Origin: a virus | Reading direction: 5' to 3' (one strand) | Length of the DNA: 64,000 bases | Virus record (IMG/VR): IMGVR_UViG_3300002143_000172 | Coordinates: 64,001-128,000 of that record | Shown: positions 54,875 to 58,541 of the stretch, one piece after another | Layout: each line of letters opens with the position of its first letter | Position numbering within the stretch: the first letter of the stretch is position 1 | Translations under genes and position numbers: made by a program | The notes under the pieces: model-generated | Told to the model about the DNA's origin: nothing | Databases searched by the model: none | Seen by the model: only the letters and a program-made list of their open reading frames with translations

Positions 54875-56173
54875 TTAGATTTTTTCACCTTTAGCAAACC
54901 CGCGGAATCGAAGGAACCTTGGGAATCTAAGTGAGTATAACTCTTGACTATCTTGACTGAGAGTCGCCGCATCTGCTCGGACTTCCACGATCTGACCAAC
55001 AACTGCATCTTTGTCGGCCCAAAATTCGTTTCGGTCATCATCTGTAAAACCCGACCCAACATTAACACGAATCTGCTTCCCATCATCTTCGCCCTCACAT
55101 ATGATCGCACCCAATCGACCTTCATTTTTTCCGGTGCCTTCTTCTACCGCAACAACGGTTAAACTTACTTCGATAAAGGGCTTCATTTTGAGCCAGCTGG
55201 TACTCCGCTTACATTCGTAAGGGGCATCTATATCCTTGATCATAATGCCTTCGTAACCGGCTTCAATAGCATCTTTGTTATATTGCTTAAATTCTAGTTC
55301 GCCAACATAGCTCCCCAGATCAACTTCAATTTGGGGAATAATGTCAATACTACCGATTTTATCAAATTGTGCTTTTAGGCCGCGCAACAGATTGCTACGG
55401 CGGCGTTGGCCCAACACGCTTTTTCCCTTTTGGAATTCGCTAAGTGGCAGGATATCAAACAGCATTAGACGAGCGTCTTCTGTTTGGGCATTTTCCTTAC
55501 GATGCACCTGTTTCATCAGGGCTTGGAAACTGCTACTAACCATCTCACCGTCAATAACCCAACTGCGTTCAAACAGTCCTATATCGTCCTCTATGGATTT
55601 AGTAATGTGTCCGAAGTTCTCCAAGACCTTACCATTGCGGCTGTACATCACAGCGGTCTTTGCTTCTGCGTTAATGATAGTGACCACACGGACACCGTCT
55701 AGTTTTGGTTCTAGCAGTTTCTTGCCTACGATCTTCTTTTCGTGATTAGCACCGTCATGTGCCAACATACATTCAAACACAGGGACTGCATTTTTCTTAA
55801 CTTTGTTAATGGTCTTTTCACTAACACCACAGCGAAGATCTTTGATAAGGATACGGCGATACCAATTATTCCACTGATCCTTTTTACTGGCACCCAATGC
55901 CAGTTCAATAGCACTACGGGCGTCGTCGCCAGTAAGTTGTCGTGTGCTTAAAAGATGACAGAGTTCTTTGAAAGCTACCCAAGGCAAACCTTGTCCATCC
56001 GGACCACCGTGGCTGGGAACTTTCTTAACTCCGAAAGTAATATAGGGACTGAGTGCTAATTGGAAACCTTCAAACAGTTCTTCGTTATCGATTTCTGCCT
56101 CGATGATCGCTTCTTTGTTAAGACGGCTAGGATGGGTTTCCAGAGACCAAATGATGTTCTCACAGTGTGACAT
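54875..56173 (-). CDS. ATP-dependent DNA ligase
   Basis: EPKLDGVR, DGEM, FDIL, EGIMIK, WLKMK, VGSGF, LRFPRF. Confidence 0.96.
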   Translation of the reverse strand: MSHCENIIWSLETHPSRLNKEAIIEAEIDNEELFEGFQLALSPYITFGVKKVPSHGGPDGQGLPWVAFKELCHLLSTRQLTGDDARSAIELALGASKKDQWNNWYRRILIKDLRCGVSEKTINKVKKNAVPVFECMLAHDGANHEKKIVGKKLLEPKLDGVRVVTIINAEAKTAVMYSRNGKVLENFGHITKSIEDDIGLFERSWVIDGEMVSSSFQALMKQVHRKENAQTEDARLMLFDILPLSEFQKGKSVLGQRRRSNLLRGLKAQFDKIGSIDIIPQIEVDLGSYVGELEFKQYNKDAIEAGYEGIMIKDIDAPYECKRSTSWLKMKPFIEVSLTVVAVEEGTGKNEGRLGAIICEGEDDGKQIRVNVGSGFTDDDRNEFWADKDAVVGQIVEVRADAATLSQDSQELYSLRFPRFLRFRGFAKGEKI

Positions 56174-56251: not shown

Positions 56252-56575
56252 TTATACCGAAAAACTAGACCCGCATCCACAGGTACTTTGGGCATTTGGA
56301 TTTTTAATAGTAAACTGACTGCCCATAAGATCGTCAGTAAAATCCACTGTTGCACCCTGCAGATATTGCATACTCATAGCATCAACGAGCAAGGTCATTC
56401 CGGGCCGTTCGACTGCAAAGTCATCTTCGCCCTGTTCTTCATCAAAAGTAAATCCATAACTAAATCCGCTACATCCGCCACCTTGGACGAATGTTCGAAG
56501 TTTTAATTTTGGATTATTTTCTTCTGCTAATAGGTCTGCAATTTTTGCAATTGCACTTTCTGTAAGTTCAATCAT
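56252..56575 (-). CDS. erpA: A-type Fe-S carrier ErpA
   Basis: [35 protein letters not shown]. Confidence 0.92.
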
Positions 56576-56898
56576 ATTCTAAAACTTTCTCCACAACCGC
56601 ATCGGTCTCGTTCGTTTGGGTTAACAAAATCAAAACCTTCGTTAAGACCTTTTTTAACCCAATCCACTGTTAGTCCTTCTAGGTAAACATGAGACCTTCC
56701 ATCTACCCAAACTGTTACTCCGTAGCTTTCATATTTGAATTGATCCCTAGTAACTGGTGTATGATCAACATATTCTAATGTATAGGCCAATCCACTGCAT
56801 CCAGTAGTTTTAACACCAAGGCGTATGCCCAGGCCTTTGCCTCTATGTGCTAACTGTTGTTGGACCTTAGTGGCCGCTTGTTCAGTTAGTGAGATCAT
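56572..56898 (-). CDS. iscA: A-type Fe-S carrier IscA
   Basis: [25 protein letters not shown]. Confidence 0.93.
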
Positions 56899-58288
56899 GT
56901 CTTTCTCTGTAGTCTTTTATTGCCGCTTTGATAGCATCTTCTGCTAGTATTGAACAATGTATTTTAACTGGCGGTAGGGCGAGCTCTTCAGCAATCTCTG
57001 AATTCTTAATGCTTCCTGCTTGGTCAAGAGTTTTACCTTTGACCCATTCAGTAACAAGACTGGAACTGGCAATAGCTGAACCACAATTGTGTGAACCGAC
57101 TCTATTAGAGAAAAACACATGAGCACCATCCTCCAATTTTAAATCATAAACTACGACTAATTTGCCATCTCTTTCACATCCACGCAATTGATTTTGATGA
57201 GTTATCGCTGAAATGCCTACGATTTCCATTCCATTGTGAATAAAATTCTGCACTTCTGGTAATGATTGTGCAATATCTTCTACTGCTAAAAATAACGAGT
57301 CGTATCCGGCTGTGGCCAATTGCTTACGCCGGTTGGCCACATAATTTGATTCCTCAGACCGATCCTGCATAAATTTCGGCATCTGCTTTGTATATACTTC
57401 TATACATTTTTTCTTGCCAGGCACAATAAAGTCCGGACTTGCTGGACCAGATTCCGTCTGAATCCATATCTTGCCAGCACTCCATCTTACAGCTACATTG
57501 TTTTCTTCAAATAAACTGATGTATTTTTGTTCAATACTAGTAGGTTTAGTCCAATCTCGTTGTGCCATTCCCTGTTGCCATTTTTCAATGTATGCTAGAT
57601 TTGACCAATTTTTAACTGAGGCTGCACTTGAACGCTTCTTTTTAGTTGCTAAATCTTTACACACATACCCAGGTTGATTTTGTGGTAATACCGAGTGGTC
57701 AAACTCCTTATTCCATGCTGTCATTCTGACACTATTTTTTTGTTTAAGTGTAGTACAATGTCTGTTGTTAGTAAGAATCCTTAGTTCGTGTTCAGTTATC
57801 TCATATAACTCTTGTCCTACTTGTAGCTGTTGCGCTTCGATTGGCTTGTTATTGGCATTCCAAAATATATGTTCCTTAGTACAAATTAATGAAAAAGTTC
57901 CAGGATTAATATTTTGTCTACTAGTTTCTCTTTGAAATGTAATTACTAACAAATCATCCACTTCGACCGAATGTTTAATAATATCTCGCACTTTTTGCGG
58001 ATGAATAGTATTTCCATCCCACGCTAACACTTCATCACCAACGACTAACGATGATATCTTTTTTCTATTAGTTGGTGTATTCACTGGCATATTGCTTGTT
58101 AGACACCCATATGTTTTAAATTTTGCGTCTTTGATAATTCCATCTTCTACTCTAATCTGTAATTTCATTACATCGCCACAAGCAGGTGCGCCCACCATTC
58201 CTGTGCCAACATCGGGATCATCTTTTTGGAAAGATCCTGCATTTCTAGGATTTTCATAATGATCAAGTACCTTGTCTGAATATGCCAT
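56882..58288 (-). CDS. iscU: Fe-S scaffold IscU interrupted by an intein
   Basis: MAYSDKVLDHYENPRN...APACGDVM...KFKTYG | intein | CGSAIASSS...LPPVKIHCS; spliced product 128 aa. Confidence 0.95.
   Translation of the reverse strand: MAYSDKVLDHYENPRNAGSFQKDDPDVGTGMVGAPACGDVMKLQIRVEDGIIKDAKFKTYGCLTSNMPVNTPTNRKKISSLVVGDEVLAWDGNTIHPQKVRDIIKHSVEVDDLLVITFQRETSRQNINPGTFSLICTKEHIFWNANNKPIEAQQLQVGQELYEITEHELRILTNNRHCTTLKQKNSVRMTAWNKEFDHSVLPQNQPGYVCKDLATKKKRSSAASVKNWSNLAYIEKWQQGMAQRDWTKPTSIEQKYISLFEENNVAVRWSAGKIWIQTESGPASPDFIVPGKKKCIEVYTKQMPKFMQDRSEESNYVANRRKQLATAGYDSLFLAVEDIAQSLPEVQNFIHNGMEIVGISAITHQNQLRGCERDGKLVVVYDLKLEDGAHVFFSNRVGSHNCGSAIASSSLVTEWVKGKTLDQAGSIKNSEIAEELALPPVKIHCSILAEDAIKAAIKDYRERHDLTN
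57086..58105 (-). mobile_element. Intein (340 aa) with DUF559/Vsr-like endonuclease domain
   Basis: Block A CLTSNMPV, block B CTKEHIFW, block F VYDLKLE, block G SHN/C; central PTSIE...PDF...CIEV...GY. Confidence 0.92.
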
Positions 58289-58298
58289 AATATGTGTG

Positions 58299-58541
58299 CT
58301 AAGAGGTGCCTATTTTAATTTTTTTTACAAACTCGATAACTTCTTTAACTGTTTGTAATTGTTCTGAATCGTCATCTGGAATTTCTATCTCTAATACTTC
58401 TTCCAAATTCATTATTAATTCAACTTTGTCCAGAGAATCTGCACCAAGGTCATTTGTTAAGTTACTATCATCTGTTACTTGCTCTATCTTAACACCTAAC
58501 TGTTCGGCTATGATTTTCTTTACTTGTTCTTCAATAAGCAT
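58299..58541 (-). CDS. acpP: Acyl carrier protein
   Basis: DLGADSLD phosphopantetheine site, IEIPD. Confidence 0.95.

Follow-up and report, generated by a model that had tools for sequence, protein, structure and literature searches.

A predicted class-1 intein with a nested Vsr-like nuclease domain at a cluster-ligand cysteine of phage IscU

The iscU locus of an uncultivated jumbo phage

The window analysed here is a stretch of 64,000 nucleotides (positions 64,001 to 128,000) of the IMG/VR virus record IMGVR_UViG_3300002143_000172, a phage contig of 159 kb that is estimated to be 44% complete and whose genes include those for phage RNR and tail spike. Related contigs are as long as 329-374 kb, and the source is an uncultivated jumbo-phage family. 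A megablast search of GenBank phages with 14 kb of the window gave no match, which leaves that collection without a close cultured relative, and tblastn recovered only intein-free iscU genes, in Phage C48C1 and Acinetobacter phage MD-2021a.

On the minus strand, positions 56252-58541 hold a compact string of genes for an acyl carrier protein, the iron-sulfur cluster scaffold IscU and two A-type carriers (Table 1). The phage appears to bring its own scaffold and carriers; a sulfur donor, searched for as cysteine desulfurase (PF00266), was not found in the 159-kb record, which is about 44% complete.

Table 1. Features of the iscU locus, with positions in the window
Feature	Position	Strand	Basis
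ATP-dependent DNA ligase gene, just downstream of the Fe-S gene string	54875-56173	-	Pfam DNA_ligase_A_M, E 2.2e-20
Second A-type Fe-S carrier, 4-nt overlap with the first	56252..56575	-	Pfam Fe-S_biosyn, E 3.2e-20
A-type Fe-S carrier (IscA/HesB family), 17-nt overlap with the end of iscU	56572..56898	-	Pfam Fe-S_biosyn, E 2.2e-18
iscU precursor gene, 468 aa + stop (N-extein, intein, C-extein)	56882..58288	-	TIGR01999 IscU; Pfam NifU_N, E 1.3e-48
C-extein, residues 402-468; His-Cys pair in ...KIHCS...	56885..57085	-	Aligns with residues 63-127 of 1q48 and 63-126 of 2l4x
+1 Cys codon	57083-57085	-	Aligns with Cys63 (E. coli numbering)
Predicted class-1 intein, 340 aa, 1020 nt	57086-58105	-	Translation, invariant catalytic residues, AF2 model, Foldseek, VIA-align
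Intein terminal His-Asn	57086-57091	-	Translation
Hint C-lobe, intein residues 295-340, blocks F and G, ends ...VGSHN	57086..57223	-	Homolog alignment, model, fold matches
Vsr-like, I-Bth0305I-like PD-(D/E)xK nuclease domain (predicted), intein residues 187-294	57224..57547	-	VIA-align, profile, P0195 DUF559
Helical region, intein residues 105-186, putative DNA-binding module of homing endonuclease	57548..57793	-	Model helices
Hint N-lobe, intein residues 1-104, blocks A and B	57794..58105	-	Model strands; retained in mini-intein relative P0125
Block-B His codon	57869-57871	-	Translation
Block-B Thr codon	57878-57880	-	Translation
Intein Cys1 codon	58103-58105	-	Translation
N-extein, residues 1-61; GAPACGD motif (Cys37, Asp39), ends ...KFKTYG	58106..58288	-	Aligns with residues 1-62 of IscU 1q48
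Acyl carrier protein gene, just upstream of iscU	58299..58541	-	Pfam PP-binding, E 7.1e-15

The iscU gene is read from the minus strand; the plus-strand reading of 56882-58288 is full of stops and was dismissed. Its product matched the TIGR01999 IscU equivalog model at 206.6 bits (cut-off 192.4) in two stretches that flank an insert, and these stretches aligned end to end with residues 1-62 and 63-127 of the solved IscU structures from H. influenzae and E. coli. The junctions, marked here with a slash, are ...KFKTYG/CLTSN... and ...VGSHN/CGSAIASS, so that the insert comprises residues 62-401, and subtraction of its 340 residues from the 468 of the precursor leaves an IscU of 128 aa. An earlier sequence-only reading of this DNA had stated that removal of the insert restores such a protein, and the alignment of the exteins with solved structures bears this out. 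The motifs GAPACGD, YG/C(GSA) and KIHCS are all present in the window IscU and align to the IscU structures. The established cluster ligands of IscU are Cys37, Cys63 and Cys106, together with Asp39 and His105, and the residue that follows the insert is the one that aligns with Cys63.

A separate peculiarity was seen at the GAPACG motif of related genes. In 8 of 113 related iscU genes, the reading frame is broken just past this motif (Cys37-Gly38) by a micro-insert, in which a Gly codon is followed by a stop codon, 1-4 nt and a second Gly codon, as in GGA TGA C GGA or GGT TAG ATA GGC. A pattern scan found 73 viral contigs with 17 variants of the micro-insert. The related loci concerned are L006, L011, L070, L076, L081, L086, L087, L116 and L123-L195. 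The gap between the two Gly codons measures 4, 5, 6 or 7 nt with no preference for frame, and the flanks are otherwise open and conserved. A short programmed hop of the ribosome between the two Gly codons is a candidate mechanism that fits every variant, and the ribosome hop of T4 gene 60 offers a precedent (PMC5462505; bioRxiv 10.1101/2022.08.31.505936). The iscU gene of the window lacks the micro-insert, and its GAPACGDVM sequence is intact (around 58168-58194, minus strand).

Anatomy of the insert and its nested nuclease domain

A search of a collection of 5.8 billion proteins returned 694 relatives. Every one of the best 120 is an IscU of about 465 aa that has this insert, and identities range over 64-98%. 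Conservation was assessed in 69 homologs (64-98% identity) taken from these best 120 of the 694. The first residue of the insert, Cys1 (Cys62 of the precursor), was invariant in 69 of 69 homologs, as was the C-terminal junction H400-N401/C402. Block B reads T137-K-E-H140 in precursor numbering, with T137 and H140 invariant in the 69 homologs, and a nearly invariant Cys immediately precedes the block-B Thr.

Curated families performed poorly with this insert. Searched alone against Pfam, NCBIfam and PHROGs, it matched no significant family, and the Pfam Hint model scored the window protein at 19.3 bits, under its threshold of 29.7; two homologs, P0129 and P0130, exceeded the Pfam Intein_splicing threshold of 35.8 bits, with 37.3 and 40.3 bits respectively. 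Since curated HMMs barely detect the insert, structure and profile searches were needed. An AF2 model of the insert had a pLDDT of 82.8, and its best Foldseek match was the gp41-1 intein (6qaz, probability 1.0). VIA-align superposed the model on many inteins with Z scores of 16-18.6 and an rmsd of 1.8-2.4 over 124-139 residues, in alignments that spanned residues 1..340 and skipped the middle. A sequence-profile search of the PDB with the whole intein gave weak intein matches (gp41-1, E 0.047); matches to sugar-binding and TIM-barrel structures over residues 254-332 in that search were discounted as spurious. An exhaustive HMMER search with the insert detected inteins with 27-33% identity, the middle domain included, in radical SAM, DegT, NrdD, PolB and transglutaminase genes, and these relatives exceed the Pfam intein thresholds. 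Judged by its sequence and modelled fold, the insert in the phage iscU is a genuine class-1 intein that is predicted to splice. The sequence-only reading, which gave coordinates but no strand, had called it an intein at Cys63, and the junctions, the splicing residues and the Hint fold all agree with that view.

The middle of the intein, which was skipped in the superpositions on other inteins, contains a second domain. VIA-align matched intein residues 187-294 to 3r3p, the catalytic domain of I-Bth0305I, with a Z score of 10.1 over 94 of 98 residues, and to the DUF559-like protein 3hrl (Z 9.0) and Vsr (1cw0, Z 8.6). A profile built from the nuclease domain of the intein and its free-standing relatives (profile A3) matched 3r3p with an E-value of 2e-7 (34 bits) and Vsr with an E-value of 0.02. 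The free-standing homolog P0195 matches DUF559. Conserved residues of the domain, in precursor numbering, are E253, P285-D286-F287 and E297, and the intein clade retains the Glu, the Asp of PDF and the Glu of IEV of an EDxHD-type site. The general-base His of EDxHD is not found at the aligned position, where the intein has KQM and I-Bth0305I has YWH; some of the free-standing relatives retain YWH or FHH. We therefore regard the domain as related to the EDxHD family and not as a member of it, and the missing His makes its chemistry, and even its activity, uncertain. The profile and fold matches place the nested domain in the Vsr-like homing-endonuclease lineage, as a presumed DNA-cleaving enzyme.

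Helices occupy intein residues 105-201 of the AF2 model, at a lower pLDDT of 54-80. NUMOD3 is present in the free-standing relatives P0199, P0219 and P0233, and Pfam detected no NUMOD3 in the intein itself. By model and analogy, the helical region at residues 105-186 may serve the homing endonuclease as a DNA-binding module. I-Bth0305I, the prototype of the EDxHD family (PMC3239194), resembles the nested domain in nuclease fold and profile and in the helical region N-terminal to the nuclease, and NUMOD motifs occur in free-standing relatives of the domain. However, I-Bth0305I is intron-encoded and free-standing and has the His of YWH, whereas the nuclease of the intein clade is nested and lacks a His at that position.

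The two weak points in this anatomy, a Pfam Hint score under threshold for the window sequence and the missing Vsr-type His, are what one might expect of a decayed insertion that no longer splices, in which case iscU would be a pseudogene, or the insert would stay in a modified IscU as a permanent domain. In unsaturated pairs, the median dN/dS was about 0.12 in every partition, that is, in the exteins and all parts of the intein, and 0.116 in the nuclease domain; synonymous sites were near saturation in most pairs. As judged from these substitution ratios, the nuclease domain is under purifying selection. Uniformly low dN/dS speaks against decay, as do the invariance of all the splicing residues in the 69 homologs and the confident Hint fold, and an insert left in place at Cys63 would break the scaffold. 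A non-splicing insertion is consequently very improbable.

Patchy distribution and horizontal movement

Among the 80 viral iscU loci closest to the window in the C-extein, 78 are intein-free with directly contiguous exteins, and 2 have the 1020-nt insert at the same codon. The contiguous exteins of these 78 loci identify the insert as a separate element, as opposed to a domain particular to one lineage. On a wider scale, 39 viral loci bear the intein, compared with at least 594 viral iscU loci, both counts being limited by the search patterns. No second copy of the iscU intein was found in the 159-kb record (about 44% complete). The intein model PF14890 also found no match in the record, a result that is uninformative because the model misses the iscU intein as well.

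In one relative, the phage-type IscU P0125, the same site holds a mini-intein of about 166 aa, from which the nuclease region has been cleanly deleted; the Hint N-lobe of this mini-intein is 60% identical to that of the window intein. P0125 represents a nuclease-loss stage of the homing cycle. The Cys63 site is thus known empty, with the full intein and with a mini-intein that has lost its nuclease, as expected of the stages of such a cycle.

We then compared the intein with the sequences around it. Intein and extein identities were poorly correlated across 253 pairs (r = 0.18). Between the window and locus L083, nucleotide identity was 64% in the upstream flank, 67% in the N-extein, 92% in the intein, 82% in the C-extein and 64.5% in the downstream flank. 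A second pair, L108 and L110, gave 60%, 70%, 92%, 75% and 61% for the same segments. Between loci L082 and L083, identity is 100% across the intein, the C-extein and the following 600 nt, and falls to 71% in the N-extein and 58% upstream. The boundary of this exchange lies at or near the 5' junction of the intein. It may stem from recombination linked to the nuclease or from a chimeric assembly, and chimeric assembly may also explain some of the mosaics among metagenome contigs.

The extein phylogeny was also examined. The ML tree requires at least 9 gains or losses of the intein, only 2 of which are forced by supported branches, and an AU test on these short exteins did not reject a single intein-bearing clade (p = 0.21). 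The extein tree is too short to prove multiple gains, and the case for horizontal movement consequently rests on the segment-wise contrasts in identity. On those sequence comparisons, the iscU intein moves horizontally, and the histories of intein and exteins are uncoupled.

Taken with the anatomy of the insert, these observations make it very likely that the element is a selfish class-1 intein, which would splice constitutively to restore Cys63 and would spread by nuclease-driven homing between co-infecting phages. The iscU gene would be translated as the 468-aa precursor. An N-S acyl shift at Cys1 would generate a thioester that is then attacked by Cys+1, the future cluster ligand Cys63, and cyclisation of the terminal Asn followed by an S-N shift would yield a normal 128-aa IscU with Cys63 restored. 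During co-infection, the nested Vsr-like nuclease would cut intein-free iscU alleles, and repair would copy the intein into them; horizontal movement and purifying selection lend such cleavage indirect support. The choice of the Cys63 site would follow from the needs of the element, namely a DNA target that does not vary and a Cys, Ser or Thr at +1, and would answer no need of the phage, for whose biology the effect of the intein is probably neutral. The earlier reading had offered a selfish element exploiting an invariant site as one possibility, and had proposed a search for intein-free iscU alleles in related phages. That search succeeded in 78 of the 80 closest viral loci, and the patchy distribution, the uncoupled histories and the conserved homing nuclease favor the selfish element.

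Conditional splicing and relation to known inteins

Cys63, a ligand of the cluster, is also the +1 nucleophile of the predicted intein, and the exteins contain the remaining ligands. This arrangement raises the question of whether the intein has been retained as a gate on the phage IscU, such that active scaffold is produced only under the right thiol or metal conditions. Splicing could be blocked by oxidation to a Cys1-Cys+1 disulfide, by Zn2+ or Fe2+, or by a nascent cluster held on Cys37, Asp39, His105-Cys106 and Cys+1. Published precedents exist: the M. tuberculosis SufB intein lies in an Fe-S assembly protein, and metals and oxidants are reported to influence its splicing (PMC8891592), while the DnaB intein is an oxidative-stress sensor (PMC6195587). 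The nearly invariant Cys before the block-B Thr is consistent with such a role, and the intein is as well conserved as the exteins. However, most related phages have an intein-free iscU, and the intein is thus dispensable to the phage. Conservation of the homing site fully accounts for where the intein sits and why it persists, and the intein moves horizontally. In addition, sensitivity to Zn2+ and oxidants in vitro is common among inteins with Cys1 and Cys+1 and is no proof of adaptive regulation. We therefore consider conditional splicing unlikely. If it did operate, thiol and metal conditions inside the infected cell would set the supply of phage scaffold through splicing, and a mobile element would carry a post-translational switch on Fe-S biogenesis.

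A selfish, constitutively splicing intein remains the preferred reading, and several known systems come close to it. Like the M. tuberculosis SufB intein, the window intein is of class 1, has a homing-endonuclease domain and resides in an Fe-S cluster assembly protein (PMC8891592). The two differ in setting, since the SufB intein belongs to the SUF pathway of a cellular host, whereas the window intein belongs to ISC and lies in IscU, encoded by an auxiliary gene of a phage. They also differ in that the +1 nucleophile of the window intein is itself a ligand of the scaffold cluster, and in that its nuclease is Vsr-like.

Also close are gp41-1 and other phage-type inteins of the 'fractured genes' from ocean metagenomes, gp41-1 (6qaz) being the best structural match of the Hint domain. 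Those inteins are split, with the endonuclease encoded as a separate ORF between the halves, whereas the window intein is contiguous and its nuclease is fused in frame (PMC2677866). Vsr-like homing endonucleases have been described from phage 'fractured genes' and from introns (PMC2677866, PMC3239194), and stage IIIa of the model of Dassa et al. (2009) predicted a contiguous intein with an in-frame nuclease (PMC2677866). The window intein, with its predicted Vsr-like homing nuclease in frame, has the arrangement that this model foresaw.

IscU and NifU receive zero mentions among the intein hosts in Dassa et al. (2009) (PMC2677866), and our literature searches found no published description of an IscU or NifU intein, in keeping with the earlier reading, which knew of none. 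As far as these searches show, IscU is a previously undescribed intein host gene; the sequences are nevertheless common, with hundreds in public metagenomes. The metagenome IscU/NifU inteins P0123, P0129 and P0132 occupy the same Cys63 site. Inteins of this kind always directly precede a cluster-ligand cysteine, and differ in the type of nuclease (or have none) and in host.

Two of the metagenome proteins, P0130 and P0135, contain two inteins each, one before Cys37 (GAPA/C...HN/CGDV) and, at Cys63, a mini-intein. The contig of P0135 is gene-dense and eukaryote-like, with mitochondrial-carrier, Rpb7, ThiF and MoaA-like genes, which suggests that its host is a giant virus or a compact eukaryote-like genome.

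These findings extend inteins to the ISC scaffold IscU, where a single residue would be splicing nucleophile and cluster ligand at once. The natural variants, comprising full, mini and empty alleles together with a gp41-1-like splicing domain, offer material for protein engineering. For the abundant uncultivated jumbo phages in which iscU is an auxiliary gene, the iscU intein provides a clean natural test case of whether inteins are parasites only or may be switches as well.
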